Source of the DNA: Candidatus Kapaibacterium sp.
GTDB taxonomy: Bacteria; Bacteroidota; Ignavibacteria; Kapaibacteriales; UBA2268
Length of the DNA: 64,000 nt
Direction: 5' to 3'
Assembly (NCBI GenBank): GCA_963664875.1
Contig: OY761611.1
Coordinates: 3,680,001 to 3,744,000, forward strand
Part shown: in pieces, positions 7,982 to 21,899 of the stretch
Layout: the number at the start of each line of letters is the position of its first letter
Position numbering within the stretch: position 1 is the first letter of the stretch
Position numbers and translations under genes: made by a program
The notes under the pieces: model-generated
Seen by the model: only the letters and a program-made list of their open reading frames with translations
What the model was told of the DNA's origin: nothing
The model's database searches: none

Positions 7982-8890
7982 ATGTTAAAAAAATTATGTT
8001 TATTCTTGATTTTTATGTTCTTTGCCTTAGATGCTTCTTCAGAATCAGTAGTTGAATTAAGATCAGGTACAGTGCTCGTAGGTGAGATAATTCAGGAAGA
8101 TAATCTCACACTCAAGCTCAAAACGAATGATCAGGTAGTTGTAACAATCGAAAAGGATAAGATTATCAAAATATCGAATGCTAAGCTGCTAATAATTACC
8201 AAAAACGGCAGTCGATATGTTGGTGAAATTATAGAAGAAAATGATTCGCTGATAAAGCTACGAACTGAAGACGATCTGATTATGGAAATACCAAAATCTC
8301 AAATACAGGATAAACTTTCTGCAACGACGTCCGATTTGAACCGACCGATGCCAAGCTATTATACTAACTCCAATCAACGCAGCGAATGGCCTTATAGCTA
8401 TAAGCAAAACAGCAATGCAAACGGAGGTTTATATTATATGCCTACCGACTACAATTTAGGGCACTACAATGCAGGAATTTCTCTTATACTTCCCGGAGGA
8501 GTAAATTTTGTTTTTGGTTATACTTCCAATGATGTAGGTTTCAGATTTCAGGGAGGTTACATTGGGGATATATATGGTTTGCAGGGCAATTTTTTGCTTA
8601 ATCTTTCCCAAACAAGAAACGTAGAAGTTAACCTCGGAATCTGTGGCGGTTTTACTCATCTCAGAGAAGAAATTACAAGGACTTACAGCAATTCTTATTA
8701 TTATGAAAAATATACTACCTTTATATACCCGACATACTCCTATGTTGGCTTGACTTTAGATGTTAATATTTATGGATTTTTTGTAGAAGCAGGTATTTCA
8801 GTAGGTGATGTCGATAATTACTTATCAGAAATTGAGTCTCCTCAAATATTATTTGCTATCGGCTATGTACACAGATTTAATAAGAGATGA
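7982..8890 (+). CDS. Exported protein with duplicated N-terminal domain and probable C-terminal beta-barrel (paralog of 6987-7853)
   Basis: Shares LRSG.VL.GEI.QED, NGSRY.GEIIEE, QGN.L.NLSQ, YSY.GLTLD.NIYG.F.E, GYV.RFN with the upstream gene. Confidence 0.65.
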   Translation: MLKKLCLFLIFMFFALDASSESVVELRSGTVLVGEIIQEDNLTLKLKTNDQVVVTIEKDKIIKISNAKLLIITKNGSRYVGEIIEENDSLIKLRTEDDLIMEIPKSQIQDKLSATTSDLNRPMPSYYTNSNQRSEWPYSYKQNSNANGGLYYMPTDYNLGHYNAGISLILPGGVNFVFGYTSNDVGFRFQGGYIGDIYGLQGNFLLNLSQTRNVEVNLGICGGFTHLREEITRTYSNSYYYEKYTTFIYPTYSYVGLTLDVNIYGFFVEAGISVGDVDNYLSEIESPQILFAIGYVHRFNKR

Positions 8891-9083
8891 GGCTGTCTCA
8901 TAAGTCAAAATTTGCAACATATTCTTGATGTTTGTAAGTTTTACCGACAGCTAAAGCAGTCGGTTGCACTTGTGTAACTCATTGCAACCGCATGCTTTAG
9001 CTTGCGGTAGAAGAAAATATAACGTTTGTTTTTCCTCTACTTTTACTAAAGAGTATGACAAAACTCAGACTTATGAGACAGCC
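8891..9083. mobile_element. Non-autonomous miniature inverted-repeat element (MITE), 193 bp
   Basis: Perfect 16-bp terminal inverted repeats GGCTGTCTCATAAGTC (8891-8906) and GACTTATGAGACAGCC (9068-9083); no ORF inside. Confidence 0.75.
8942..9009. repeat. REP-like inverted doublet inside the MITE
   Basis: TACCGACAGCTAAAGCAGTCGGTTGCA (8942-8968) and TGCAACCGCATGCTTTAGCTTGCGGTA (8983-9009); each is a hairpin and they are inverted copies. Confidence 0.7.
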
Positions 9084-9182
9084 CCGTCTGCATCTGAATT
9101 GCATTCTTATTTATGATTCGTAAGCAAATGTAGGCTTGATTTTCAGAGGGAAATGTTATGAAGGAAATACAGGAAATGTAAA

Positions 9183-9977
9183 ATGAAATATATCTCGATG
9201 ATTTGTGTGTTGTGCTTTTGTATTATAATAAATTTTATGGAAGCTAACTCCTATAACTATGATGAATTCAATTCTGAATACTCCCAGATATTAGAAGGTG
9301 AAGATTTTTGGTATTTAGCATATATAGATATTCCAACCTTGCCTATAGGTGAAACTAAGAGATTGGATATTTTAAGAAAAGACGAATATAGTCTTACATA
9401 TCAAGCTGATACGTCTTTAAGTTTAGAAGTCATTATTAGTCGTTATAATAAAGCATTGGATATAGCCAATATGTTTTTCCAAGCAGAGCCACAAATTATT
9501 TCTTGGCTAAAGGAACAAATTGAAGATTCGTCAAAAATTTCGCAACTTTTTGGTTTACATTCTAGACATAGAGAAGTTATTCCGATGCCGGAATATAGTA
9601 GTACCATGAGTCCCACTATAATTGAATGCTATTATGTTATTAAAAGCAAATATTCTGCCTTAGCATTCAGTATTAATTACTGTATAAATCAAGTTTTTAG
9701 TCCAAATGATATCAGGCTGATATTTTTATCTAAATATGAGGGTTTAGGTATAACATTAAATAAACTTATTGATCAGGAGTGGCAAAAATTTGAATCATTA
9801 TATGATAGGTATTTTGAAACTGATTTAAAGCAGTTTTATTTAGAAGTGACCAAAACTTTTGGTTATTTAGTTGACCCATATTTGGAGTCTAATGCTACCT
9901 ACACAATCAAAGAACCTTACAAATCAATGAATGACCCTGATCTGATCAAAATACAGGAATATTTTAATGAGAGGTAG
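9183..9977 (+). CDS. Exported immunity-like hypothetical protein (family A; paralog of 20096-20881)
   Basis: Signal peptide; shares INYC.NQVF.P.DIRL.FL and near-identical C-terminus FGYLVDPYLESNA.YTIKEPYKSMNDP.LIKIQEY with 20096-20881. Confidence 0.65.
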   Translation: MKYISMICVLCFCIIINFMEANSYNYDEFNSEYSQILEGEDFWYLAYIDIPTLPIGETKRLDILRKDEYSLTYQADTSLSLEVIISRYNKALDIANMFFQAEPQIISWLKEQIEDSSKISQLFGLHSRHREVIPMPEYSSTMSPTIIECYYVIKSKYSALAFSINYCINQVFSPNDIRLIFLSKYEGLGITLNKLIDQEWQKFESLYDRYFETDLKQFYLEVTKTFGYLVDPYLESNATYTIKEPYKSMNDPDLIKIQEYFNER

Positions 9978-10114
9978 TGGAAAAGTTTAGCATTGTAATA
10001 TGGTGGGGCAAATATGGTGACAATAACGGGTCAATTTTCAGAGGGAAAGAACATAAACACTATTCCCAAGAATCATTTAGAATGTTTAAATAGAAGCACA
10101 GGAAATTTTTGATT

Positions 10115-10642
10115 ATGTTAAAACACACAAATTACATCATATTATTTTTCTGTTTTATTAGTATTGCCTATGCAGAAGGTCAACAGTCGAATATTTATAA
10201 TAATTTAACCAGTGTTTTTTTTGAAGTGAGAACTTCAAGAGGAGGTGTGTATTTTTCTGATTGCGAGGCACTAAGTATTACTTTCCTATCTGATACTACA
10301 TCGAACTTATATAGAGTGCTTATAAATTCAGATTCAGATAGTGGAATTATGCTGAATTTTGAGGAATTGATACAACTACAGAATGCTGTCGATAGTTGCA
10401 AAATTGAAATAGTTTCAAACAATTGCTATTACTTAGTATTTTCAGTAGTTTACAATTTATCAATATCGTGGAAAAGTGCTGTTTCATATATTTGTTTTCC
10501 TGAAGACTCTGACATATTTTATTCAATTCTGGAAGAAAACTGGTCAAAAGAGAAAATAGATAAACTTCGTTCTTTTATTAATAATGAACGAAAAAAAGCA
10601 GCAGGTCATCCTTCTATCTTACTAAAGGACAAAACCAAATGA
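10115..10642 (+). CDS. Exported immunity-like hypothetical protein (family B; probable paralog of 21081-21629)
   Basis: Signal peptide; similar size and spaced matches to 21081-21629; stop overlaps the leader-repeat ATG (ATGA). Confidence 0.6.
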   Translation: MLKHTNYIILFFCFISIAYAEGQQSNIYNNLTSVFFEVRTSRGGVYFSDCEALSITFLSDTTSNLYRVLINSDSDSGIMLNFEELIQLQNAVDSCKIEIVSNNCYYLVFSVVYNLSISWKSAVSYICFPEDSDIFYSILEENWSKEKIDKLRSFINNERKKAAGHPSILLKDKTK

Positions 10643-10710
10643 AAAATAAACACAAAAAACTAGTCATAATGCTACTATTAGCATTGCTGCAAACCACGAG
10701 TTTGCTTGCC
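10639..10710 (+). repeat. Signal-peptide leader repeat, copy on + strand
   Basis: ATGAAAAATAAACACAAAAAACTAGTCATAATGCTACTATTAGCATTGCTGCAAACCACGAGTTTGCTTGCC; near-identical to 17531-17602 and 18618-18689 on the minus strand. Confidence 0.9.
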
Positions 10711-10893
10711 CCTGCCCGGAAAACAATATATAAACCGAGAAATGCCGCTTTAAAACACTAATATGTTCTTATCTTACTCATAGATTGGACTAACTCAGAT
10801 ACATTTCCTTTGTTCAATGATAAATATGAAAGATTTACTTACAAGCACAAATTGTATTTTACTCAGCCCAAATCAAAGCTAAAAGTATTTTAG
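10639..10893 (+). pseudogene. Leader-tail fusion ORF interrupted by one in-frame TAA (10759-10761)
   Basis: MKNKHKKLVIMLLLALLQTTSLLAPARKTIYKPRNAALKH*YVLILLIDWTNSDTFPLFNDKYERFTYKHKLYFTQPKSKLKVF* in a single frame. Confidence 0.45.
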
Positions 10894-11143: not shown

Positions 11144-13336
11144 TTGAGTAAAATTATGGCAAAGACTAGTATCTACGAAAGAATAACTAACGATGTATTA
11201 GAAATACTTAGGCAATCTCCTTTGCCAATCAGAAGACATGAAATTGCAAAACTTATAGAAATGCCTGCAGAAAGTGAAGAGTATGATTTGCTTAGAGATG
11301 TTTTAGACGATCTCGAAGAGCAGGGTGTTATTGAAAAGTTTGCCCGAAGAAAATATGCCCTGAAATCTTATCAGGATAATTCTTCTATAAAAGGCATTTT
11401 GGTTATCGAACATAAAAAAGCGTATGTGGAAACTTCGGTGCCCGAATTTCCTGTTATCTCAGTAAAACAAGCCCATCTTAATACCGCTCTTTCCAGCGAC
11501 GAAGTGCTTGTAAAACTATTAGCTTTGAAGAAAAAAAAGAAACCTCAGGGCGAAATTATAGAAATTATTAACCGCAATCAGACTCAATTTGCTGGAACAA
11601 TTGAGTATGACGGATATTTCCATTTTGTTGTACCGGATGATGATACGATATATGTTGACTTTTTGGTTCCAAAAGATTTGCTGAAAAGTGCAGAACCGGG
11701 TGATAAAGTCAATGCCAGATTTGTCAGCTGGGAGCATTCTACTAAGTCGCCTCATGCCGAAGTAGTTGAAATTATTGGTAAAGCCGGCGAGGCAAAAGCT
11801 GAGTTTGACGCTATACTTACTGATTTTAATCTTCCGGAAAAATTCCCGGAAAAAGTGGTGAAAGAGGCAAGGGGTATGTCTTTGCCTGATGTTAATGTTA
11901 ACTACCCGGGCAGATTAGATGTAAGAGACGAGCTGATTATAACTATAGACCCTCATGATGCGAAAGATTTTGACGACGCACTGTCTCTGAAAATACTTGA
12001 AAACGGCAATTACTATCTCGGTGTGCACATAGCTGACGTGAGCTACTATGTGGAAGAAAATACTGATTTGGATATTGAGGCAAGGTTACGCGGTAACTCG
12101 ACTTATCTCGTGGATAGAGTCATCCCAATGTTGCCGGAAGAGCTTTCAAATGAATTATGCTCTCTGAAACCTAATGAGCCAAGATTTGCTTATTCGTGTT
12201 ATATGGAAATCACTCCTAACGCTCAGGTTGTTGATTACCAAATCACAGAAACTATAATCGACAGTAAAAGAAGGTACAATTACGACGAAGTACTTGAAAT
12301 TATCCAAAATGAGGAAGGCGACAATCTCGAGTTGATTTTGTCACTGCATAAGCTTTCAAGATTGCTTCGTGCCAAAAGGTTTCGTGAAGGTGGCATAGAA
12401 TTCGACACTATGGAGCTTCGCTACGTTTTAGACGACCACAAAAATCCGGTCGAAGTCAAAATGAAACGCTCAAATCATGCTACTCAGTTAGTAGAAGAAT
12501 GTATGCTTATAGCTAACAAAGTTGTAGCAACTCACATAGAAAAAGTTGCGTCAATGCAGAAACTGAAAAACGTTCCTTTTATTTATCGTGTGCATGACAA
12601 TCCTGACCCTACAAAGTTCCAGGATGCACTAAACTTTATCAAACAATTTGGTGTAAAAACCAAAAAGCAAAATCTTACTTCGCATGAGATAAACAAAATG
12701 CTCGAAGAAGTAAATGAAATGCCGGAAAAGGATATTATCCATTCTGTCTTGATTCGCTCTATGGCGAAAGCTGAATATTCTACTAAAAACATTGGCCACT
12801 ATGGTTTAGGTTTCAAGTACTATACACACTTTACTTCGCCTATCAGACGCTATTCAGATTTGATTGTACACCGTATGCTGAAAGAGTACCACAAAGGTCA
12901 GGTCGTTCCCGAAAGATTGAAATGGCTCAATATACTTATGAAAGATATTGCCAGTATCACTACCGACCGTGAGCGAGCTGCTATGGAAGCAGAAAGAGCT
13001 TCTAATAAAATCGCCGGTGCGATGATGATGGAACGACACATTGGCGAGGAATTCAACGGTATCATCACCGGAGTTACAAGTTTCGGGCTGTTTGTGCAGG
13101 TAGATGGCATCTATGCAGAAGGTCTTATACACATGAAAGATATGCACGACGATTATTACCTTTTCGAAGAGAAAAAAATGCGACTTGTCGGCAAAAGACA
13201 CAAAAAAGTGCTACACATGGGTAAAAGAATTCGTGTGAAAGTAATAAAAGTCGTAATTGAAAAACGTGCAGTTGACTTCGCTCTTGTTGATGACAAGCCT
13301 TACGAAATTGATATGATCGATAATGTGGAGTTATAA
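11144..13336 (+). CDS. rnr: Ribonuclease R
   Basis: RNB motifs TIDPHDAKDFDDALS, HIADVSYYV, YTHFTSPIRRYSDLIVHR; N-terminal HTH/CSD and C-terminal S1 domain; start may be ATG 11156. Confidence 0.95.
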   Translation: MSKIMAKTSIYERITNDVLEILRQSPLPIRRHEIAKLIEMPAESEEYDLLRDVLDDLEEQGVIEKFARRKYALKSYQDNSSIKGILVIEHKKAYVETSVPEFPVISVKQAHLNTALSSDEVLVKLLALKKKKKPQGEIIEIINRNQTQFAGTIEYDGYFHFVVPDDDTIYVDFLVPKDLLKSAEPGDKVNARFVSWEHSTKSPHAEVVEIIGKAGEAKAEFDAILTDFNLPEKFPEKVVKEARGMSLPDVNVNYPGRLDVRDELIITIDPHDAKDFDDALSLKILENGNYYLGVHIADVSYYVEENTDLDIEARLRGNSTYLVDRVIPMLPEELSNELCSLKPNEPRFAYSCYMEITPNAQVVDYQITETIIDSKRRYNYDEVLEIIQNEEGDNLELILSLHKLSRLLRAKRFREGGIEFDTMELRYVLDDHKNPVEVKMKRSNHATQLVEECMLIANKVVATHIEKVASMQKLKNVPFIYRVHDNPDPTKFQDALNFIKQFGVKTKKQNLTSHEINKMLEEVNEMPEKDIIHSVLIRSMAKAEYSTKNIGHYGLGFKYYTHFTSPIRRYSDLIVHRMLKEYHKGQVVPERLKWLNILMKDIASITTDRERAAMEAERASNKIAGAMMMERHIGEEFNGIITGVTSFGLFVQVDGIYAEGLIHMKDMHDDYYLFEEKKMRLVGKRHKKVLHMGKRIRVKVIKVVIEKRAVDFALVDDKPYEIDMIDNVEL

Positions 13337-13340
13337 CAAA

Positions 13341-13973
13341 ATGTTTACCGGACTAATCGAAGAAATAGGCGAAATAAGTGCTGTCAGACCTATTGGTGCG
13401 GGTAAGCGAATTACTGTGAAAGCATCAAAAATTATGGATGACCTCAAAATAGATGATTCTGTGGCTCTTAATGGTGCCTGTCAGACAGTTGTAGCAGTAT
13501 CTGCCAATCATTTCGAAGTCGAAGCAGTAGAAGAAACTTTAAGAAAAAGCACGCTCGGGCAGTTTCGCCCGGGCATGCATATTAATCTCGAAAGAGCTGC
13601 GAAACTCGGTGACAGAATGGGAGGACATCTTGTGCAGGGGCATGTCGATACTATCGGCACGGTTGCAAATATTCAGAAAGAAAGTGCCGGCATTTTGGTT
13701 TGGGTGTCCTATCCGCCGGAATTTGATAAATATCTTATTCCGACCGGTTCTGTAACTATCGACGGTATTAGTCTTACTTCTGCAAGGGTGGAATCTTATA
13801 GATTTATGGTGTCGGTGATTCCGCATACTTGGAAAGTTACAAATCTGAATAATATCAGAATCGGCTCTTATGTCAATCTTGAATTTGACGTTGTTGGCAA
13901 ATATATTGAAAAAATGCTCAAATCGGGCAAATCATCCGGTTTGGAGCAATATATAGATCAACCTTTGTATTAG
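13341..13973 (+). CDS. ribE: Riboflavin synthase (alpha chain)
   Basis: MFTGLIEE N-terminus, DSVALNGACQTV, NLERA, GGHLVQGHVD, VNLEFD. Confidence 0.95.
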   Translation: MFTGLIEEIGEISAVRPIGAGKRITVKASKIMDDLKIDDSVALNGACQTVVAVSANHFEVEAVEETLRKSTLGQFRPGMHINLERAAKLGDRMGGHLVQGHVDTIGTVANIQKESAGILVWVSYPPEFDKYLIPTGSVTIDGISLTSARVESYRFMVSVIPHTWKVTNLNNIRIGSYVNLEFDVVGKYIEKMLKSGKSSGLEQYIDQPLY

Positions 13974-14036
13974 ATTGGATAATCACTTAAACACTTTTTT
14001 TATGGCATTTAATGAGAACAGCAATTTAGGAAATAG

Positions 14037-15668
14037 ATGATTCGACATTATTTTACTTTAAAACAAATAGCAGAGTCTCTGCAGTTTCTTATTGGCTTTC
14101 AGGTAACGGAATGCTTCACTCAGGAAAAGGAAACTCTCTCCTTAGTGCTGAGCAGCGGAAGCAGAGAGGAAATGCTGCATTTTTCCGCTGATCCGAAATT
14201 TTGCAGCTTTTACCTAAGACACAATTTTGCCCGTGCAGGTAAGAACACCACAGATTTGATGCCGGATTTGCTCGGAGAATATCTACAAAGTATTCAGGTT
14301 AAAGAAAAGGACAGAGTAATAATATTAGATTTTGTTGCTGTGCGTGCTTACGTTTTGCTTTATGGCGCTGCAGAAAGTAATTTTATTCTTAGCTCAAAGC
14401 CAAATGACATAGTAATCGATTCGCTCAGCAAACGAAAGGCACTTGAGGGACAAAAAATCAAATTGAAACCGACTTATAATAAAAGTTTACTAAGCTTTCC
14501 GGGCGATGCCAAGTTACGCGATGCTTTAGCCAAATCTGATTTGCTTTTAGGGAAAGACTATGCCGAAGAGTTTTTACTTGCTCAAAATATCGACACAAAA
14601 GCTCTATTGCAGGATTTTTCTGAGGTGGACATATCTTTGCTGCTCGAAAAGGTAAATCTATTTACAGAGCAAATATGTACCTCAAAAGAGTATCTGATTT
14701 ACAGGAAAGATGACGATAGTCTTATGATGAGTCTTATTCCGCTGCAAAAATATGGCGAGCCTGAGCAAATAACAGATAATCTGCATAAAGCTATCCAAAT
14801 TCGACTTAGCTACGAAAAGAAAGAAGATACTTTTGCCAAGGATTTTAAAGAAGTTGAAAATAAATTGGAATCCAAAATATCAAAAATTGTCAGAAATATT
14901 GGATTTGCTTCTGATTTTTCTAAAACTGAGGAAAAGATAAGTAATTACACACTTTGGGGCGAAATACTCCTTTCTCAGCCAAATCCTAAGTTGAAACCCG
15001 GAAAAGAAATCAGTCTTTCTGATTGGAGCGGCAATCAGATAATTATTCCTCTCGATGAGAAGCTCGATTTGATGCAAAATGCACATATCTTTTACGAAAA
15101 GTCCAAAAAGTCAAAACAGGAGCTTATATTCAGAAAGCTCCGAATTCCAAAAATGCAGGAAGAATTGGACTCACTCAATCAAATAAAAAAAGAGCTTGAC
15201 AGCATTCATGATATTAAAGAATTGAATAAATTTGTAAACAGAAACACTAAGGTTTTAGGAATAAAGAAACAGGGCAACAAGACATTGGATGCAAGCGAAA
15301 AATATAAAGTGTTTGACTTGGGAGATGGTTTTACTCTCTATGTTGGTAAAAATGCTGCCAACAATGACGAACTTACCATGAAGTTTGCTAAAGCAAATGA
15401 TTTGTGGTTTCACGTTCGGGGCATTAGCGGTTCGCACGCTGTGATTAGAATAGAAAAAGGTCAGAAACCCGGTAAACATATTATCGAAAAAGCTGCGGCT
15501 ATTACTGCTTATTACTCAAAAATGCGAAATGCAGGACTCACACCCGTAGCTTACACAGAAAAAAAATATGTAAGAAAGCCCAAAGGTGCCAATCCCGGCC
15601 AAGTGCTTATTACAAAAGAAAAAGTAGTGCAGGTAGTCCCCGCATTGCCAGACGGATATACAGAATAA
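14037..15668 (+). CDS. NFACT family / ribosome quality control protein (RqcH/FbpA-like)
   Basis: NFACT-R domain VGKNAANNDELT...DLWFHVRGISGSHAVI...AAAITAYYSK...YVRKPKGANPG. Confidence 0.85.
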   Translation: MIRHYFTLKQIAESLQFLIGFQVTECFTQEKETLSLVLSSGSREEMLHFSADPKFCSFYLRHNFARAGKNTTDLMPDLLGEYLQSIQVKEKDRVIILDFVAVRAYVLLYGAAESNFILSSKPNDIVIDSLSKRKALEGQKIKLKPTYNKSLLSFPGDAKLRDALAKSDLLLGKDYAEEFLLAQNIDTKALLQDFSEVDISLLLEKVNLFTEQICTSKEYLIYRKDDDSLMMSLIPLQKYGEPEQITDNLHKAIQIRLSYEKKEDTFAKDFKEVENKLESKISKIVRNIGFASDFSKTEEKISNYTLWGEILLSQPNPKLKPGKEISLSDWSGNQIIIPLDEKLDLMQNAHIFYEKSKKSKQELIFRKLRIPKMQEELDSLNQIKKELDSIHDIKELNKFVNRNTKVLGIKKQGNKTLDASEKYKVFDLGDGFTLYVGKNAANNDELTMKFAKANDLWFHVRGISGSHAVIRIEKGQKPGKHIIEKAAAITAYYSKMRNAGLTPVAYTEKKYVRKPKGANPGQVLITKEKVVQVVPALPDGYTE

Positions 15669-15682
15669 AGGAGTTCAGCCTG

Positions 15683-16513
15683 ATGAATAAGCTAATTGTT
15701 ATTTTGATTGTGTTTGCGATTACTGCAGTAACTGCGGCTAATCTCTCAAACAAACTAAAAATAGAAAAAAACTCGAACTATAAGTACTATATCGTAAATG
15801 ATTCTAAACATTTGCTTAGGACGAGCGACGGCACTTTGGACGAGTTTGACACTATTGCATCTGCAGAGAGCTTTTATGCAGACCTGCTTTTTAGCGAGGT
15901 TGGGGGAGATCGGCTTATAGCTCTTGTTGCTCTTTCCAACGTGAGTACATACGAGAAAGACCCCTCGAAAGGGATGGAAATTAAGTCCAAGAATGATTTA
16001 GTAGATTTGGACGAAGTTGGTGGGGAAATCTCTATTGCGGCTAATGGGGCAGATGCAAAAATCGAATCCTTGGATAACGTAAACTCTTTATCCTATCTGA
16101 TTTTGCCGGATATAATGCAGTACCTCACCGAGCTTGCTCTGCCACTGCCTACTTACGAATCAGAGGCAGGTGCTGAGTGGTTTGCCGATAAGACAGAGAT
16201 TCAAAAATATGATTTTGCAAGTTTGGAATCGCATCACAAAATAAGATATAAACTTACTGCTTTCAAAGAGTACAAAGGTTACCAATGTGCTGAAATAGAC
16301 TTTGAGACTGTTACAAATGACTATACCTCGAAGTTTGCAGTCTCTGCATTTAAAAGCAAAATCATGGGCAAAGCTTTGATCGAAGCTGCAACCGGTGTGG
16401 TAGTCAATCTTCAGATTTCGACAGACTTTACTCTGATTGCGGATAATAATGGTTTGAATTACAACACAGAAACTTCGTCATTTACAGAAATTTCTCTGCG
16501 TTCGAGAGAATAA
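15683..16513 (+). CDS. Exported hypothetical protein
   Basis: AAGGAG RBS, signal peptide, 276-aa ORF with beta-rich pattern. Confidence 0.65.
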   Translation: MNKLIVILIVFAITAVTAANLSNKLKIEKNSNYKYYIVNDSKHLLRTSDGTLDEFDTIASAESFYADLLFSEVGGDRLIALVALSNVSTYEKDPSKGMEIKSKNDLVDLDEVGGEISIAANGADAKIESLDNVNSLSYLILPDIMQYLTELALPLPTYESEAGAEWFADKTEIQKYDFASLESHHKIRYKLTAFKEYKGYQCAEIDFETVTNDYTSKFAVSAFKSKIMGKALIEAATGVVVNLQISTDFTLIADNNGLNYNTETSSFTEISLRSRE

Positions 16514-16521
16514 AAAGAGGG

Positions 16522-16563
16522 TCTATTCTGCTTCTCTTATTCAAGTTTGAGAGAGGCAGATAG
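16522..16563. terminator. Hairpin/terminator at the convergent junction ending the cassette array
   Basis: CTGCTTCTCT...AGAGAGGCAG stem between the 16513 stop and the last leader repeat. Confidence 0.55.
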
Positions 16564-16567
16564 TTTT

Positions 16568-16630
16568 AACTCGAAGTTTGCAGCAATGCTAATAGTCGCA
16601 TTATAACTATTTTTTGTTTTTATTTTGCAT
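16568..16630 (-). repeat. Signal-peptide leader repeat, degenerate terminal copy
   Basis: Reverse complement ATGCAAAATAAAAACAAAAAATAGTTATAATGCGACTATTAGCATTGCTGCAAACTTCGAGTT; one A fewer in the A-run gives TAG at codon 8. Confidence 0.85.
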
Positions 16631-17429
16631 TTGGTGATGTTGATTTAGGTTCTCTCAAAAATGTAATTCCTTCTACAGTGTACTCAGGAGAAAGATAAAT
16701 ATCTGGGCATACAAAATCTAAATGCTTTGATAAGAATCCCTTAAATGTTTTTTCTGTTCTATTGTCAATTAATTCTATAATGCCATTATCAATATTATAT
16801 TTTCCAAAATACATTAACCTACCTTTAAAATAAATGGTAAAAGTATTGAAGGTTTCAAATATTATTTCATAGTCTTTCAATAAGAACTGATATCTATCTA
16901 GAGATTTTAAAATAGAAATATCATCTATTTTAGATTGCTTATTTGCTTCATAAATTTGTACCATGTTACTATCAATATTTTTACAAATTTTGTAATATTC
17001 TTCTAGTTTATCGGCATCTCCTAAAAATGTTACAAATCGGCCTGTATCATCAATTACATCTATGCTATAGTTATTATCTGACACCAGCGAATCAAGATAC
17101 ACCCAGTTTGATTTAAGCAAAATATTGCCGTCATTTTTTTTGTAACATTCAAACTTTATCTTGTTAAAAGCATCTGAGAGAACACAATTCCCATTATGAT
17201 ATGCTACTTTTCCAGCTAGTAAGGGAAAATAAAATATATGTGACGATCCTTCATGAATATTTTGATAATACATAAGAAATGTTTCATCAGAGTATATTTT
17301 CAAAGTTATCTGTGCTGAGTAGATTTGTTTGTTGAATGTATATATACTATGAGTATTAGTATTAGTTTTAGTACTAACAATATTTGCTGAAGAAGTTATC
17401 ATAGCAAATAGAATCAATATGAATTTCAA
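16620..17429 (-). CDS. Exported immunity-like hypothetical protein (family C; probable paralog of 17599-18396)
   Basis: TTG start 12 bp after the mini-ORF stop, signal peptide; LLAGK..., GKYNIDNGIIEL matches to 17599-18396; ends over the leader-repeat ATG. Confidence 0.6.
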   Translation of the reverse strand: MKFILILFAMITSSANIVSTKTNTNTHSIYTFNKQIYSAQITLKIYSDETFLMYYQNIHEGSSHIFYFPLLAGKVAYHNGNCVLSDAFNKIKFECYKKNDGNILLKSNWVYLDSLVSDNNYSIDVIDDTGRFVTFLGDADKLEEYYKICKNIDSNMVQIYEANKQSKIDDISILKSLDRYQFLLKDYEIIFETFNTFTIYFKGRLMYFGKYNIDNGIIELIDNRTEKTFKGFLSKHLDFVCPDIYLSPEYTVEGITFLREPKSTSPNAK

Positions 17430-17440
17430 AATGATTTACC

Positions 17441-17602
17441 TTATTTTAATGGGTCAAAATTATATTCACACTCAATTTGTACGGGGATGTGTTTGAAATT
17501 AGCCTCATACCTGAAAGTTATCGTGTGCTGCGCAAGCAAACTCGAAGTTTGCAGCAATGCTAATAGTAGCATTATGACTAGTTTGTTGTGTTTATTTTTC
17601 AT
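17441..17602 (-). CDS. Leader-repeat mini-ORF (53 aa): conserved signal peptide plus variable tail
   Basis: MKNKHNKLVIMLLLALLQTSSLLAQHTITFRYEANFKHIPVQIECEYNFDPLK*; AAGGA RBS lies inside the upstream gene; absent from the ORF track. Confidence 0.6.
   Translation of the reverse strand: MKNKHNKLVIMLLLALLQTSSLLAQHTITFRYEANFKHIPVQIECEYNFDPLK
17531..17602 (-). repeat. Signal-peptide leader repeat
   Basis: 72-bp near-identical copy of 10639-10710 and 18618-18689. Confidence 0.9.
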
Positions 17603-18396
17603 TTGGTTGTGTCCTTAGGTTCAAATTCAAAAAGACTATTCTCTATTCCACATGGCAGAAAAAATGGTAATTTTGGTATATACAAAGTTCTATTATCCTT
17701 AACTTTCCCTTCGAAATGTACTCCATAAAATGACAATGTCAAAAGGCCATTTTCAAGTCTGTAGGTTCCTTCTAATAAAGGTGTATTGTTTACAGAATAA
17801 GTACAACTACCATCATCAACAAAATCTAAATAGAACATATTGTTCTTATTTAAATTGCTATATGGTGTGTAATGAGGTAATGAAGTCGCAACATATCTTC
17901 CAACTTCAATATCATTTTGCTCATTATCAAACGCTAAATGAGCGTAAGAAAGTTTTGTCGCCTTAAGACATTCAAAAAATAGTGGAAAATTACCAAGATC
18001 TTCCGGTAAAAACTCTGGGTCATTTTCCATGAACCATACTTTATCCATTGTTTTGTTTTTTAGAAAGATAGGAGCATCAATAAATACCATTTTGTCATCC
18101 ACCAAAGTAGCTGTATAATTGAACCCATAAATATCATCATGAAAGGATATTTCATTATCTTTCCTTTTATATTTCCCTTTGGCAAGTAGTATTTCTCCCA
18201 AATCAATATCAGACTGAATTGGATTAGTTAAAGTCATCATATAAGCATCCCCCACAATATTCAAATGTATATTTTTGTAATAATTAAATGTATTACTATT
18301 GTAACATAATATTGTATGAATCCTGTCATTTGGAATGTCAGATAACTGCAATTTAAAAACTCCAAGAATTACTAATAGCATTAACATCATTACCAT
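17599..18396 (-). CDS. Exported immunity-like hypothetical protein (family C)
   Basis: Hydrophobic N-terminus; internal duplication (KGKYKRKDNEISF / EGTYRLENGLLTL); start overlaps the stop of 18390-18689. Confidence 0.6.
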   Translation of the reverse strand: MVMMLMLLVILGVFKLQLSDIPNDRIHTILCYNSNTFNYYKNIHLNIVGDAYMMTLTNPIQSDIDLGEILLAKGKYKRKDNEISFHDDIYGFNYTATLVDDKMVFIDAPIFLKNKTMDKVWFMENDPEFLPEDLGNFPLFFECLKATKLSYAHLAFDNEQNDIEVGRYVATSLPHYTPYSNLNKNNMFYLDFVDDGSCTYSVNNTPLLEGTYRLENGLLTLSFYGVHFEGKVKDNRTLYIPKLPFFLPCGIENSLFEFEPKDTTK

Positions 18397-18689
18397 GCCC
18401 TCAAACTTGTTGGTAAAACATCATTGTATTCTGGTTTAACGTTAAGTCCATAACCTCTTTTTATCATTATTCTATCTAATTTATCAGCTTCAAACGGTTC
18501 ATAGTGATTTTGTAAATAATACTTTGAAAATAGGTAATCAGTAAGATAACTTTTACTATCTAAATATTGACCATACTCATGCATATATTTTGGATTATAA
18601 AGAACAAAAGCATTTTGTGCGAGCAAACTCGAAGTTTGCAGCAATGCTAATAGTAGCATTATGACTATTTTTTTGTGTTTATTTTGCAT
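18390..18689 (-). CDS. Leader-repeat ORF (99 aa): signal peptide fused to a tail with a degenerate HExxH-like motif
   Basis: MQNKHKKIVIMLLLALLQTSSLLAQ followed by YMHEYGQYLDS...YL. Confidence 0.6.
   Translation of the reverse strand: MQNKHKKIVIMLLLALLQTSSLLAQNAFVLYNPKYMHEYGQYLDSKSYLTDYLFSKYYLQNHYEPFEADKLDRIMIKRGYGLNVKPEYNDVLPTSLRAW
18618..18689 (-). repeat. Signal-peptide leader repeat
   Basis: 72-bp near-identical copy of 10639-10710 and 17531-17602. Confidence 0.9.
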
Positions 18690-19158
18690 TATTTAGTTCC
18701 TTACTCTCTTCTATCAACTGATTGACTAATGAGTCTAACTTGTCACTATGATAATAATCTAGACAATTTTGGCTTATTAATCTTCTTTTAATTCCTTCCT
18801 CTTCTAAAAGATACTCTAAAAAAGGAATAGAATCTGCTACAACTTTTGCACAACTGTCCAATATTGTATATTCCCTATCATATTCATCGGTTAATGAAAA
18901 TACAATTCGAAACCCATCTTCTAACTTATAATCATATCCTGTAATACCGTGGTCAATACAAGAGCACAGACTATATTCTTTAAACTGCTCTTTGAGTAAT
19001 ACTCGATATTCTTCTGTAGAGACGGTATCATCAATTTGCAGGTCTAAAAGACTTCTTTTTTCTTCTGAGGAACCCATATTAAACATCGCTAAGAAAATAG
19101 TTACTACACAAGTAGTCCATAAAATCTTATTCGTTGTTTTTTTGTGTTTATTATTCAT
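18679..19158 (-). CDS. Tai4-like (T6SS amidase immunity-like) exported protein
   Basis: Start MNNKHKK after AAGGGA RBS; KEYSLCSCI near the N-terminus and CLDYYHSDKLDSLV at the C-terminus resemble Tai4-family motifs. Confidence 0.55.
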   Translation of the reverse strand: MNNKHKKTTNKILWTTCVVTIFLAMFNMGSSEEKRSLLDLQIDDTVSTEEYRVLLKEQFKEYSLCSCIDHGITGYDYKLEDGFRIVFSLTDEYDREYTILDSCAKVVADSIPFLEYLLEEEGIKRRLISQNCLDYYHSDKLDSLVNQLIEESKELNNAK

Positions 19159-19678
19159 TATTGATTCCCTTATTTTGTTTTTCATATATAAACCAATGAT
19201 CACCTATAGTGGTAAATAACTTGCCCCTTACTAAATATAGTGTCAAAAATTTCTTCTCAAGTTGAAAAACGGTAATTTCCAAATCAGTATTTTCTGATAA
19301 CGAATCGATATCAATAAAATGGATACCTATAACAAAAGCTAAATCACCTTGTATATCGAGTTGATATACAGCTTTGAATGGATTTTTATATTTCCTACCA
19401 GGTAATTCAATTCTCCCACTATCAAGAGTTAATTGTATTGAATCAAGCAAATGAGTGACAGTAAATTTTTCTTGGAAATGATAACTCATGTTATTAATAA
19501 TGAGCTCACTTGATGTAATTTTTTCTATGTCAGCTTGCTTTAACATTCCTAAGTTTAATGTCCTTTCCTGGGTAACTACCCACGTACCCTGTAGCTCTTT
19601 TATACTATCAGTAGCATAAAGTTTATTATTTAACAATACTACAATTAGTATAATATATATATATATGTATTTTGTCAT
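19151..19678 (-). CDS. Exported immunity-like protein (candidate lysozyme inhibitor)
   Basis: Signal peptide, lipocalin-like LQGTWVV; ATGA-coupled to the upstream ORF ending in a lysozyme-like tail. Confidence 0.55.
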   Translation of the reverse strand: MTKYIYIYIILIVVLLNNKLYATDSIKELQGTWVVTQERTLNLGMLKQADIEKITSSELIINNMSYHFQEKFTVTHLLDSIQLTLDSGRIELPGRKYKNPFKAVYQLDIQGDLAFVIGIHFIDIDSLSENTDLEITVFQLEKKFLTLYLVRGKLFTTIGDHWFIYEKQNKGINNE

Positions 19679-20106
19679 TTTATCCCCCCATATTTACCAA
19701 ACTTAAATAGTTCTCGTTCTCTTACTCTTCTATCTTCTAAGCCTACCATGTACACACCATCACTTGTGTTGATATCCATATCTTTTGCACAGCTAGCTAA
19801 AATGGCTAATTCTATCATATATTTGTCAGGATGTTCAATACTATAAAATGTACCCAAATATGCATCAGCTACTTTTATATCATACCCCGTAATTCCATAG
19901 TCTTTACACCTAAAGAGGCTAAATTCTTTAAGATGCTCTTTCAATAACAATTTATACTCTTCAACAGAAACAGTATCATATGTCGCCAAATGTCGAAGTG
20001 TTCTTTTTTCTTCAGATGAGCCCATATTAAACATCGCTAAGAAAACAGTTGCAAGACCTATGGTCATCAAAATCTTATTAGACATTTTTTTATTTTTATT
20101 TTTCAT
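19675..20106 (-). pseudogene. Chimeric ORF: Tai4-like N-terminal part fused to a GH24-lysozyme-like C-terminal tail
   Basis: Aligns with 18679-19158 (FLAMFNMGSSEEKR...DTVS.EEY..LLKE..KE.SL..C...GITGYD.K...SCAK), then switches to SDGVYMVGLEDRRVRERELFKFGKY. Confidence 0.6.
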
Positions 20107-20881
20107 TGAGATATTCCTGTATTTTGATAAGTTCAGGGTCATTCATTGATTTGTAAGGTTCTTTGATTGTGTATATAGCATTAGACTCCAAATATGGATC
20201 AACTAAATACCCAAAAGCTTTAGCTATTTCAAGATAGAATGTTTCTAAATCTGTTTCATAGTATCTAAGATAGATATTTTTAAAATTGCTATAGTGCATC
20301 TTCAGAATCTCAATCACAGATTCACGATTATTAAGAAGATTATTTAAAAACATCAATCTGATGTCGGCAGGATAAAATACTTTATTCAAGCAGAAATTGA
20401 TAGCAAGAACCAATGATCCGTATTGATTAAAGTTTGTGTATATCAGCAGGCAAGCTTCGTCACTAATAAAACTAGAATATTCACCTAACAATGAATCAGA
20501 TTTTAATTCTGCCATATGTCTCTTCCACAGGCCAGTTAGAGAACAGTCCCAAGAATCACATTCTTCAAATGACATCAGAAATGGAATTATATTATGATCT
20601 GCATCAAAATACAAATTTAAAAATTCTGATGTGTTTCGTATTTCATTGACTAGGCTATCTTTGCCAATCATTTCCTGAATCTTTATGCCTTCATTTTTAA
20701 AAAGAACACTAAGTGGCAAAGTTTCGATTTTAATATCGAAAAATATACTAAACCGATTTACTTTTGCAAGTAGTTCATGGAACTCATTTGGATTAAATTG
20801 ATTTAAAGACTTATCATTACCAAGTAGTGCACAAGATACTGACATTAACGCAATCAAGAATACAACAAAGGTAGTTTTCAT
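20096..20881 (-). CDS. Immunity-like lipoprotein (family A; paralog of 9183-9977)
   Basis: Lipobox-like SVSC; C-terminal 38 aa nearly identical to 9183-9977; ends over the next leader ATG. Confidence 0.65.
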   Translation of the reverse strand: MKTTFVVFLIALMSVSCALLGNDKSLNQFNPNEFHELLAKVNRFSIFFDIKIETLPLSVLFKNEGIKIQEMIGKDSLVNEIRNTSEFLNLYFDADHNIIPFLMSFEECDSWDCSLTGLWKRHMAELKSDSLLGEYSSFISDEACLLIYTNFNQYGSLVLAINFCLNKVFYPADIRLMFLNNLLNNRESVIEILKMHYSNFKNIYLRYYETDLETFYLEIAKAFGYLVDPYLESNAIYTIKEPYKSMNDPELIKIQEYLNEK

Positions 20882-21060
20882 AATTACAAATCCTTATTCT
20901 GGTATTGGCAATCTAAAATATCTTCTCACAGTGCCGTAACCCCTCTTATTTATTTTAGGTATGGGACATATCCGGGATATGAATATAAATACCTTTGGCT
21001 CCCAATTTACTAATTATAGTGAGTGCTTTATGTTTTGAGTTAAGTTCATAAACTCTTTCT

Positions 21061-21105
21061 TTAATAGTATGGCATTGTGATTAGTATTTTGTGTTTATTT
21101 TGCAT
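21061..21105 (-). repeat. Signal-peptide leader repeat, degenerate copy
   Basis: Reverse complement ATGCAAAATAAACACAAAATACTAATCACAATGCCATACTATTAA, preceded by AAGGACAAAAGCAA as in the other copies. Confidence 0.7.
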
Positions 21106-21629
21106 TTGCTTTTGTCCTTTAGCTTATAAATCAAATATAACAGATGACTGTCATTGCCTAACTTCTGTTCAATAAATTTCCTGATTCTAACATTATCATC
21201 ATGCGACAAAACACCTCTGAAAATGTTGAAAAAATTTATTGTTATTCCCGGCAAAACAAAGAATTTTTGTTTTCTTTGCAACTCATCATCTTCATAATAA
21301 TAAATATTAATACTAAGTGAGTATTCATAGTCGAACTCTGATCTATCCAAGATAGAAGAACAATTAAGAATATTGTCTTTTAACTTCTCAAATTGTTGCT
21401 CGTTGATTTTAATTGTATCCCCGGCAAACATAAGTTTAAAACCTGTATTGTTTTCGTCAGTATATAAACACATATCGCCCCCCAAATCACCATACAAAGT
21501 TCTACCATTTATGTCAATTGATATTATCTTATCAAAAAGTCTATCTGTAACATTATGTCTATCTACGGAAACACAAGATGCTAACAAACAACAGAACATT
21601 AAGAGAATTATATAATATTTCATAGTCAT
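21081..21629 (-). CDS. Immunity-like lipoprotein (family B)
   Basis: Lipobox LASC; ATGA-coupled to the upstream mini-ORF; similarity to 10115-10642. Confidence 0.65.
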   Translation of the reverse strand: MTMKYYIILLMFCCLLASCVSVDRHNVTDRLFDKIISIDINGRTLYGDLGGDMCLYTDENNTGFKLMFAGDTIKINEQQFEKLKDNILNCSSILDRSEFDYEYSLSINIYYYEDDELQRKQKFFVLPGITINFFNIFRGVLSHDDNVRIRKFIEQKLGNDSHLLYLIYKLKDKSKCKINTKY

Positions 21630-21703
21630 TTCCACACATACTTATTTATTTCTGACTGCTTCAAAGTAGCAAAGAAAAGAACACAAAGTATAAAATATTT
21701 CAT
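21626..21703 (-). CDS. 25-aa head ORF of the cassette array
   Basis: AAAGGAG RBS then MKYFILCVLFFATLKQSEINKYVWK*; its TGA overlaps the ATG of the next gene. Confidence 0.5.
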   Translation of the reverse strand: MKYFILCVLFFATLKQSEINKYVWK

Positions 21704-21723
21704 AACTTAATCTCCTTTGTTAT

Positions 21724-21760
21724 AAAAAAGAAAGCAGGAGAGAAACAATATCTCTCCTGC
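21724..21760 (-). terminator. Intrinsic terminator immediately upstream of the array
   Basis: Perfect 10-bp stem GCAGGAGAGA/TCTCTCCTGC followed on the minus strand by TTTCTTTTTT. Confidence 0.7.
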
Positions 21761-21899
21761 GATAAAATAGTAAATATTATTTATTTAACAATAATAAATT
21801 TACCGGAATTGAGTTTATTTGTAAAAAATATAAAATGCAATTAAAGCAAACTAAGGCACTATATTTTTCAGCAAAGTCTCAATTCTATTTGACAAAATT

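Follow-up and report, generated by a model that had tools for sequence, protein, structure and literature searches.

The array of nine genes (G1 to G9) found on the minus strand of the stretch analysed here (64,000 nucleotides from Candidatus Kapaibacterium sp., hereafter the window; genome G000) is probably a detached orphan or poly-immunity array of the lineage's RHS (TcB/TcC-like) toxin system, shuffled via the repeated 5' end of the gene B698. The block occupies approximately positions 16558-21823 of the window, with a GC content of 29-31% against 36.2% for the genome, and is compared below with genomes of sister species (G002 and G003) and of other genera (G007 and G095).

The array is punctuated by the start motif ATG[A/C]A[A/T]AATAAA[C/A]A[C/T]AA, whose six minus-strand copies reported in an earlier note on this DNA (ATGs at 21105, 20106, 19158, 18689, 17602 and 16630) were all found, together with a seventh, plus-strand copy at 10639 that was absent from that list. 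Seven matches in the window compare with a mean of 0.00 in 100 dinucleotide shuffles (0/100 with any match), and the leader repeat is not due to chance. The 72-bp signal-peptide repeat described at 18689 and 17602 is real: 17529-17603 and 18616-18690 share 93% identity over 75 nt, with the translation MxNKHxK(L/I)VIMLLLALLQTSSLLAQ. A third, decayed copy on the minus strand (16558-16632, 71% identity) closes the array, with 7 codons, then a stop, and a hairpin after it (16527-16560). The full leader is not present at every site: the copies at 21105 and 16630 are shortened remnants of 14 and 7 codons, and at 20106 and 19158 only about 7 first leader codons are left, joined directly to G3 and G5. 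Leaders are far better conserved than the cargo between them, being 93% identical while G7 and G9 give no significant pairwise match. Over their first 78 nt they are 89% identical within a genome and 80% identical between G000 and G003 (6 copies per genome, 15 pairs each; four G000 copies that are truncated and one divergent G003 copy, that of L010, were left out).

The full-length gene starting with the leader, which the earlier note had proposed to look for in the genome, was found at genome position 3539920. This gene, B698, encodes a 698-aa protein with a Cys-rich body; the protein also bears a signal peptide and a YD-like motif, and its T9SS sorting domain was recognised as Por_Secre_tail (28.4 bits vs cut-off 27). 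The gene directly follows the RHS protein gene and a 139-aa lipoprotein gene. The RHS protein scores 47.4 bits for RHS_repeat (cut-off 22), and its upstream partner carries SpvB, FG-GAP and TcdB_midN. In the bacterial family the native module runs RHS toxin (TcB/TcC-like), small exported immunity protein, B698 and B441, the last also a T9SS substrate; this module is found in G003 (two loci), G007 and G095 as well, and B698 homologs occur in 18/201 genomes of the order. The single RHS locus of G000, about 154 kb from the window array, was counted by tblastn, as a whole-genome scan with PF05593 gave 0 matches even though the RHS protein reaches 47.4 bits in hmmscan. The 17 nt 5' of the leader ATG, CTAAAGGACACAACCAA, precede B698 itself in G003 and are found again at the ends of G7, G1 and W10109. 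Judged by sequence comparison, the leader corresponds to the start of B698, comprising its 5' UTR, its signal peptide and its initial codons, and is no dedicated device. The earlier idea of a special portable device must accordingly give way to the native start of a conserved T9SS substrate gene, and its supposed role in translation coupling to a chaining that is mostly the native immunity gene-B698 junction, copied with the repeat.

The chaining itself had been described correctly. G1, G2, G4, G5, G7 and G9 each terminate within or on the next motif, and G3 terminates on the ATGA start of G4. G6 and G8 consist of the leader joined in frame to unrelated tails, and at both junctions the stop abuts or overlaps the next gene, that of G6 overlapping the G7 start and that of G8 lying 11 nt 5' of the TTG start of G9. 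The cassette proteins are 143-269 aa long, with N-termini of lipoprotein, signal-peptide or membrane-anchor type. None of ten proteins (nine array ORFs and one neighbouring gene) reached any Pfam cut-off, immunity families included. Three of the five cassette families, G1, G2 and G3/G5, have relatives in sister species that directly follow toxin C-termini. No toxin link was found for G4 and G7/G9. Sigma-70-like promoter sites were not enriched (42 found vs 34.3 +/- 6.7 expected).

At its head (21626-21823, minus strand) the array carries the start of a B441-family gene, with its upstream region and ~21 initial codons (25-aa ORF, 21626-21703), as well as a terminator-like hairpin (21734-21760). 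Positions 21663-21823 share 94-96% identity with the upstream regions of five tandem B441 paralogs; for the B441 beside the RHS locus the value is 85%, and the head matches B441 aa 1-21 at 62%. The following gene, G1 (21081-21629, minus), encodes a 182-aa lipoprotein with no Pfam match. It has an ortholog in G002 (92% DNA and 88% protein identity), and in the same genome (L027) a homolog with 29-31% identity sits between a broken orphan RHS C-terminus, which it directly follows, and a leader ORF; G1 is probably an orphan immunity gene. Its stop is overlapped by the truncated leader remnant at 21061-21105 (minus; MQNKHKILITMPYY, then a stop). Just upstream of G2, positions 20909-21053 (minus) are a weak candidate for what is left of an RHS C-terminus of DUF7689 type, at its 3' end: aa 302-344 of a G003 orphan RHS C-terminus give two collinear tblastn matches there (E 0.04). 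G2 itself (20096-20881, minus), a 261-aa lipoprotein, shows 36% identity (E 3e-49) to a G003 gene (L010 11177-11950) that directly follows an orphan RHS C-terminus carrying DUF7689 and is followed by full-length B698, a context that suggests that G2, too, is probably an orphan immunity gene.

G3 (19675-20106, minus) is a 143-aa chimera of ~7 leader codons, 108 aa of the G3/G5 family and a 35-aa foreign tail without a match in 5 genomes of the genus. G4 (19151-19678, minus) encodes a 175-aa signal-peptide protein that appears to have been inserted within a G3-family gene; its 3' end is similar to the G5-type junction, and it recovered only itself from a search of 5.8 billion proteins and from 5 genomes of the genus. 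G5 (18679-19158, minus) encodes a 159-aa membrane-anchored protein whose first ~7 codons are leader-derived. Its G003 ortholog (92% DNA identity) is immediately preceded by a Tae4 tail of 108 aa (Pfam 41.5 bits vs cut-off 27). The link from the G3/G5 family to proteins downstream of two intact Tae4 toxins depends on one profile comparison (hhalign probability 84.8%, E 6.6e-6), single-sequence comparisons giving probabilities of 31.5% and 57.1%. G5 probably confers immunity against a Tae4-like peptidoglycan amidase.

The 99-aa ORF G6 (18390-18689, minus) is composed of the leader (18612-18689), an RHS C-terminus fragment (18525-18611) and a 44-aa tail. Its aa 27-55, 29 aa of a toxin domain of ~190 aa, are 79% identical to aa 1067-1095 of the RHS protein encoded in this genome, within its HExxH domain, but G6 has HEYGQ where the toxin has HEYGH, the second His of HExxH being lost, and we read G6 as a dead toxin remnant. 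The product of G7 (17599-18396, minus), 265 aa long and exported, contains two lipocalin-like beta domains and belongs to no Pfam family. Its family occurs in 3/121 genomes of the bacterial family, all three in one genus. A search of 1.84 billion representatives gave 32 relatives at E<=0.001, and its AF2 model (pLDDT 75.9) had no PDB match at E<=0.001. G8 (17441-17602, minus; 53 aa) joins the leader and the start of the B698 YD-like motif to a 21-aa unrelated tail. G9 (16620-17429, minus; 269 aa, TTG start) is a distant member of the G7 family, to which it is tied through A262 (22.6% identity, E 1.3e-4), the direct G7-G9 match not being significant (E 0.13). No relative of G7/G9 was found adjoining a toxin in the genomes searched, and the position of G7 is what suggests that it may act in immunity.

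The arrangement proposed earlier for each unit, leader, toxin tip and immunity gene, is present and is cleanest in G003, while in the window G6 holds a piece of an RHS C-terminus. In the G003 array (L009 11324-16429) five leader ORFs alternate with four G3/G5-family genes and one B139-family lipoprotein gene, and leader ORFs with toxin tails precede orthologs or paralogs of the window genes. This array contains the truncated 108-aa Tae4 tail mentioned above and an ORF of 292 aa in which the leader and ~100 aa of B698 are combined with a complete HExxH C-terminus that shares 67% identity with the G000 RHS C-terminus; several of its toxin tails are out of frame or broken.

G1 and G5 share 92% DNA identity with their copies in other species, compared with 70-78% for flanking core genes, which indicates that array cassettes move, and the two array flanks are adjacent in 0/4 other genomes of the genus. 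Elsewhere in the window an inverted mini-array (9183-10761, plus strand) comprises a G2 paralog (9183-9977), a 177-aa protein (10109-10642) weakly similar to the G1 family (hhalign probability 32%) and a 40-aa leader ORF (10639-10761). The listed contig pieces of four public runs (at most 3 samples, 2 studies) show no differences from the window, one 3.1-kb contig preserves the order from G5 to G1, and contig joints fall only at repeats, their shorter side measuring 30-61 nt, as expected from assembly ambiguity. These pieces give no sign of ongoing shuffling.

The agreement of these pieces with the window, like the failure of every cassette protein to reach a Pfam cut-off and the missing toxin link of G4 and G7/G9, would also suit an ordinary operon of lineage-specific exported paralogs without an immunity role, in which the leaders are relics of a few tandem duplications. 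We consider this unlikely, given that what lies between the 93%-identical leaders is either unrelated or strongly diverged, that an RHS toxin piece lies within G6, that three families have toxin-adjacent relatives, and that the same leader stands beside toxin tails in G003.

It is more reasonable to suppose that an RHS-derived immunity array arose by repeated duplication or insertion of segments that begin within a toxin C-terminus, pass through its immunity gene and reach 25-100 codons into B698. At one end, each event would be an illegitimate join of a B698 5' fragment to a toxin tail, at variable points and sometimes in frame, and the other end would lie in homology within the B698 5' region; stacking of such events would give units of B698 5' UTR and leader, toxin tail and immunity gene. 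The repeated leaders could then serve as RecA-type homology arms through which units are excised, inserted, exchanged or deleted. Most toxin tails of the window would have been deleted, leaving G3 and G5 directly on the leader ribosome-binding site and first 7 codons, and the outcome would be a near-pure chain of exported immunity-like genes. These genes are probably co-transcribed from the captured B441-type upstream region and translationally coupled via inherited overlapping stop/start junctions. The array would protect against toxins delivered by the RHS proteins of relatives, with Tae4-like amidase, HExxH- and DUF7689-type C-termini.

The same leaders could instead be attachment sites of recombinase-driven cassettes (integron- or rAID-1-like) served by a tyrosine recombinase in trans, a possibility favoured by the tyrosine-recombinase genes flanking the RHS locus (3520.6 kb and 3543.6 kb), by a leader fragment adjoining an integrase in G007, and by the repetitive intergenic sequences and skewed GC reported for rAID-1 clusters (10.1101/471110). 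It is nevertheless quite improbable: the window holds none of the 8 Phage_integrase matches of G000, as the earlier note had stated of recombinases, none was seen beside the G003 array, the repeat is ordinary B698 coding sequence, and the leader-toxin tail junctions vary (after 26 to ~100 codons), which argues for illegitimate joins rather than site-specific cuts. A reading of G6, G8 and similar ORFs as functional toxins or small secreted peptides, each forming an active toxin-immunity pair with the gene that comes next, is very improbable despite intact signal peptides, in-frame fusions and stops that overlap or abut the next gene, because leader ORF lengths scatter (7, 14, 19, 31, 40, 53 and 99 aa at the eight leader-motif sites of G000 without a full-size gene), their tails are unconserved, G6 has lost most of its toxin domain together with the second HExxH His, and several G003 tails are out of frame or broken.

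Read as a detached immunity array of the RHS system, the locus joins a group of known systems, and calling it undescribed was too strong, since orphan toxin/immunity arrays and poly-immunity loci have already been described. It resembles heterogeneous polyimmunity loci (Zhang et al. 2012, PMC3482391) in its tandem immunity-type genes of the same orientation, with minimal spacing and presumed polycistronic, and in a content that varies between related genomes. According to that source, polyimmunity loci are never interrupted by toxin cassettes, whereas the window array retains toxin relics and B698-derived repeats, and no gene in it could be assigned to a named Imm family. With the rAID-1 clusters of Bacteroidales (Ross et al. 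2019, bioRxiv 10.1101/471110) it shares a low-GC orphan immunity array, repeats between genes and toxin relics, but no XerD-like recombinase is adjacent to the window array, its repeats consist of coding sequence from the 5' end of a resident gene, and its immunity genes relate to RHS C-termini instead of Bacteroidales T6SS effectors. Like the T6SS orphan immunity arrays of Vibrio cholerae (Kirchberger 2017, PMC5361080), it is heterogeneous and horizontally acquired and keeps immunity genes whose effectors have been displaced, by a proposed combination of homology and illegitimate recombination that needs no integrase; here, however, the context is RHS/Tc-like with T9SS substrates, not T6SS clusters, and a defined repeat of 75-200 nt lies between units.

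Rhs orphan C-terminus/immunity arrays are reported to form by C-terminal displacement (Koskiniemi 2014, PMC3967940; Poole 2011, PMC3150448; Jackson 2009, as cited in PMC5361080). The present system resembles them in its truncated toxin C-termini with an immunity gene behind each, in a homologous repeat on which recombination could act and in a full-length RHS toxin encoded by the same genome. The earlier statement that no intact toxin is present holds for the window, where none was seen, but not for the genome, in which the intact RHS toxin lies ~154 kb away, a distance that separates the array from the classical ones. Unlike in the latter, the repeat corresponds to the 5' end of B698, which lies downstream of the immunity gene, and not to the rhs core, and most toxin tails are deleted. 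Classical core-led RHS orphans are present in the sister species (L010 and L027).

The minus-strand block at 16550-21830 contains nine closely spaced ORFs (G1 to G9), arranged in tandem on one strand with the stop/start overlaps described in the earlier note, and its GC content is 29-31% against 36.2% for the genome (3.83 Mb). The start-motif ATGs listed there, at 21105, 20106, 19158, 18689, 17602 and 16630, were all recovered together with a seventh, plus-strand site at 10639, these 7 matches in the window comparing with a shuffle mean of 0.00 (0 of 100 shuffles with any match). The long leader repeat that had been claimed is also real, the copies at 17529-17603 and 18616-18690 being 93% identical over 75 nt, and a decayed copy, 71% identical, lies at 16558-16632. 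G6 and G8 are leader-tail relics within the array and the other ORFs are cassette genes, for which an immunity identity can be inferred in only three of five families. The array is located about 154 kb from the RHS locus, flanked by housekeeping genes, and at its head it carries a B441-type upstream region with 94-96% identity to five further copies. An Rfam scan of the whole window gave no matches, and promoter-like sites were not enriched in it.

Leader DNA was found elsewhere in the genome at 88-96% identity, and a looser motif regex retrieved 11 genomic sites: seven in the window, two in an array at 2829-2830 kb, one unrelated and one at 3539920. Searching the leader against the whole genome, as the earlier note had suggested, thus revealed a full-length gene starting with it, B698 at 3539920, whose 698-aa product has a signal peptide, followed by NTYTYGYDDAGNRI (a YD-like motif), by a Cys-rich body and by a T9SS sorting domain that matches Por_Secre_tail at 28.4 bits (cut-off 27). 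B698 is preceded, in order, by genes for a 1189-aa partner protein (SpvB, FG-GAP, TcdB_midN), a 1158-aa RHS protein (RHS_repeat by hmmscan, 47.4 bits, cut-off 22) and a 139-aa lipoprotein (B139), and is followed by B441 (BNR-type, with domain matches from the ortholog in the sister species G003) and then a tyrosine integrase gene. Despite the hmmscan match, a PF05593 scan of the whole genome gave no matches, which we attribute to the shortness of the repeat model. The same gene order, from RHS through a small exported protein and B698 to B441, was also present at two G003 loci and in G007 and G095, which represent two other genera, and B698 homologs occur in 18 of the 201 genomes of the order. 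In addition, the 17 nt 5' of the leader ATG are B698's own upstream sequence and are included in the repeat. Given the full-length B698, the conserved module order and these 17 nt, we identify the leader as the native 5' end of a conserved RHS-locus gene, and the earlier view of it as a special device does not hold.

The immunity reading had been said to fail if the cassette proteins matched no immunity family and their homologs were not downstream of toxin genes; the former stands in that none of the 10 proteins scanned reached any Pfam cut-off, but the latter does not, as three families do have relatives downstream of toxin C-termini. A G2 homolog (36% identity, E 3e-49) directly follows an orphan RHS C-terminus in G003, which aligns to the end of the RHS core at 58% (E 6e-23) and to DUF7689 at 25.1 bits (cut-off 22.6), and a weak relic of a DUF7689-type C-terminus lies just 5' of G2 itself (E 0.04). 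In the sister species G002, a broken orphan RHS C-terminus is followed by a G1 homolog (29% identity, E 1e-17) and then by a leader ORF. Residues 27-55 of G6 are 79% identical to residues 1067-1095 of the RHS protein, a stretch spanning HEYGH in the latter and reading HEYGQ in G6; the toxin fragments in the array are this piece and the weak relic before G2, their putative cognate pairing being drawn from relatives. G1 and G2 are tied to RHS C-termini, and G7/G9 and G4 are without a toxin link. No relative of G4 was found, and the G3 tail had no match in the five genus genomes. From gene neighbourhood alone, we infer an immunity function for the cassette genes, which would supply up to five immunity-like protein families without a Pfam match.

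The third family, G3/G5, is associated with a different toxin type. At L009 of G003 (11324-16429), five leader ORFs alternate with five genes, four of the G3/G5 family and one, for a lipoprotein, of the B139 family, and one of these leader ORFs precedes a 108-aa Tae4 tail (41.5 bits, cut-off 27) followed by the G5 ortholog, which has a DNA identity of 92%. The same array carries a 292-aa ORF in which the leader and about 100 aa of B698 are fused to an HExxH C-terminus that is 67% identical to the RHS C-terminus of the window's genome; the next gene is a homolog of B139. Intact Tae4-domain toxins are present in G003 (44.8 bits) and in the sister species G004 (40.2 bits), each followed by a 173-174-aa protein (the G004 copy being 168 aa from an internal ATG). 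A profile of these post-Tae4 proteins matched the G3/G5 family with a probability of 84.8% (E 6.6e-6), and single-sequence comparisons gave only 31.5% and 57.1%; the predicted complex of the G003 Tae4 tail with the downstream G5 ortholog (score 0.01, mark 0.32) counts neither way. G3/G5 proteins and their relatives matched no Pfam family and are at most a functional analogue of Tai4, not members of it: of the Tae4/Tai4 pair, the Tae4 domain is present in G003 and G004, whereas a Tai4-family neighbour is absent. As a family, G3/G5 is a candidate for immunity to Tae4-like amidases.

Several observations concern the mobility of these units. The DNA of G1 and of G5 matches copies in other species at 92% identity, compared with 70-78% for flanking core genes; none of the four other genus genomes has the two array flanks next to each other, and the neighbour of the 286-aa flank gene differs among G001, G002 and G003. 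The five genus genomes contain 9, 7, 2, 1 and 0 leader copies. Leader identity is 89% within a genome against 80% between the window's genome and G003, a comparison from which four truncated copies of the former and the divergent copy at L010 of G003 were dropped. A third array in the window's genome (L035, 2825696-2830200) consists of a 695-aa lipoprotein gene with a C39-like peptidase domain (29.5 bits, cut-off 24), a B698 fragment and the immunity-like genes A167, A191 and A262, each followed by a leader remnant. Ongoing shuffling was not seen in the contig pieces listed for four runs, which match the window with no differences and have joints only at repeats; contigs break there, and since the four joints at leaders have only 30-61 nt on the shorter side, they were taken as repeat ambiguity.

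The junctions indicate how such an array may have been built. The join between immunity gene and leader is constant within each immunity type, whereas that between leader and toxin tail is variable, with 26 to about 100 codons before it and with or without preservation of the reading frame, a pattern consistent with a single illegitimate join combined with homology within the B698 5' region. The founding event may have been either a tandem duplication or a Campbell-type insertion of a circularised fragment, after which the repeated leaders would serve as homology arms. G3 and G5 retain only the first ~7 leader codons and their G003 orthologs have other native starts, which points to later deletion of toxin tails. 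G3 breaks off after 108 aa, where a 35-aa foreign tail and G4 follow; the 3' end of G4 resembles a G5-type junction, so the G4 unit was probably inserted inside a G3-family gene.

Taken together with known systems, the array is best filed as an RHS-linked poly-immunity array that has the downstream gene's 5' end as its repeat. In its working it resembles Rhs orphan arrays, the immunity arrays of V. cholerae (PMC5361080) and polyimmunity loci (PMC3482391). Heterogeneous polyimmunity loci are described as tandem, closely spaced same-strand genes of unrelated immunity families, uninterrupted by toxin cassettes (Zhang 2012, PMC3482391); the present genes are arranged in that way, with a putative immunity identity for three of five families, but the array is interrupted by the G6 and G8 relics. 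As with Rhs C-terminal displacement arrays, this genome has a full-length RHS toxin gene (at 3532-3539 kb, outside the window), but in such arrays the orphan units immediately follow the main rhs gene and start with a piece of the rhs core, whereas here the distance is about 154 kb and units start with the B698 5' end, core-led orphan units being found only in sister species; the array is therefore placed outside the classical displacement type. Integrons combine an IntI integrase with attC-bounded cassettes, and here the junctions fall at variable points. As the earlier note had stated, the window lacks a recombinase: none of the 8 PF00589 matches of the genome lies in it, the nearest being about 136 kb before its first base. 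rAID-1 clusters have a conserved XerD-family tyrosine recombinase at their head, repetitive intergenic sequences and skewed GC (Ross 2019, 10.1101/471110). Here GC is 29-31% against 36% for the genome, and repeats are present but are B698 coding sequence. Because no recombinase is adjacent, the array falls outside both the rAID-1 and the integron types. No description of a downstream gene's 5' end as a repeat handle was found in literature searches covering open-access papers and bioRxiv. The array indicates that an immunity library can be built with neither a recombinase nor the toxin's conserved core, repeated homology being provided by the beginning of the following gene.

The G7/G9 family was detected in 3 of the 121 family genomes searched, all from this genus, and 32 distant relatives (E<=0.001) were found among 1.84 billion representatives; the family was never seen beside a toxin. 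Among 30 G7 relatives scanned with Pfam, one matched NlpE and one MTP_lip_bd. A first model of G7 was poor (pLDDT 62.1) and gave no usable structural match. A second model (pLDDT 75.9, pTM 0.72) had no PDB match at E<=0.001; its best partial matches were the small lipocalin-like barrels TP0435, Tp0751 and Bla g 4, with a target-normalised TM-score of 0.67 over 97 columns for TP0435. The protein is predicted to fold as two lipocalin-like beta domains; a Protein Atlas best score of 0.86 is a lead only.

The module formed by an RHS toxin, an immunity protein and two T9SS substrates is conserved in a little-studied lineage whose genome here encodes T9SS-sorted proteins. It was located at 3532440-3544758 of this genome (L034), at L022 and L010 of G003, at L047 of G007 and at L048 of G095, and consists of a TcB/TcC-like RHS toxin (split or fused), the small exported protein, B698, with its YD-like motif immediately behind the signal peptide, and the BNR-propeller protein B441, which likewise carries a T9SS sorting domain. 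The module stretches read in these four genomes showed no TcA-like gene. B698 and B441 may be delivery partners of the RHS toxin, and the module could make TcA-less delivery of TcB/TcC-like RHS toxins testable. A joint reading, which we consider rather unlikely, is that the B698 5' end is a selected, integrase-free cassette handle and that B698 and B441 are the missing delivery partners. RecA-dependent circles of toxin tail, immunity gene and leader would then excise and re-insert wherever a leader copy exists, making an integron-like immunity library over at least four loci in the lineage; as T9SS substrates, B698 and B441 would partner a TcA-less TcB/TcC-type RHS toxin, linking type IX secretion to contact-dependent interbacterial killing.

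Other features were noted in and around these loci. In G007 (L046, 7824-9861), a tyrosine integrase has a 63-aa leader fragment as its immediate neighbour and, on its far side, large ORFs that resemble, by eye, a type I restriction-modification island, a hint that the 5' region of B698 may double as an integration hotspot. A plus-strand mini-array at 9183-10761 of the window contains a G2 paralog, W10109 (177 aa, 10109-10642) and a 40-aa leader ORF; W10109 was set aside as a G1-family member, its matches being weak (hhalign probability 32%, blastp against G1 E 0.15). Upstream of the G2 paralog, a gap contains a 17-bp inverted repeat (8889-8906 and 9069-9086, arms about 160 nt apart) that matches no Rfam family. 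One ORF of the genome, read by eye, appeared CheV-like. The inverted leader copies at 10639-10761 (plus) and 16558-21105 (minus) flank RNase R, riboflavin synthase and NFACT-like genes, and an inversion of 10.7-16.5 kb would result if they recombined; in G004 (L013) a lone G3-family gene directly follows riboflavin synthase. Five tandem B441 paralogs (protein identity 73-78%) occur at 923.9-931.2 kb of the genome, and their upstream 160 nt are 94-96% identical to 21663-21823 of the window. Finally, L033 of G003 and L029 of G004 are separate toxin loci in which a Tae4-domain protein with a catalytic-Cys motif region is followed by a putative immunity gene and by further ORFs starting with Gly/Ser-rich linkers, which may represent additional toxin cassettes.
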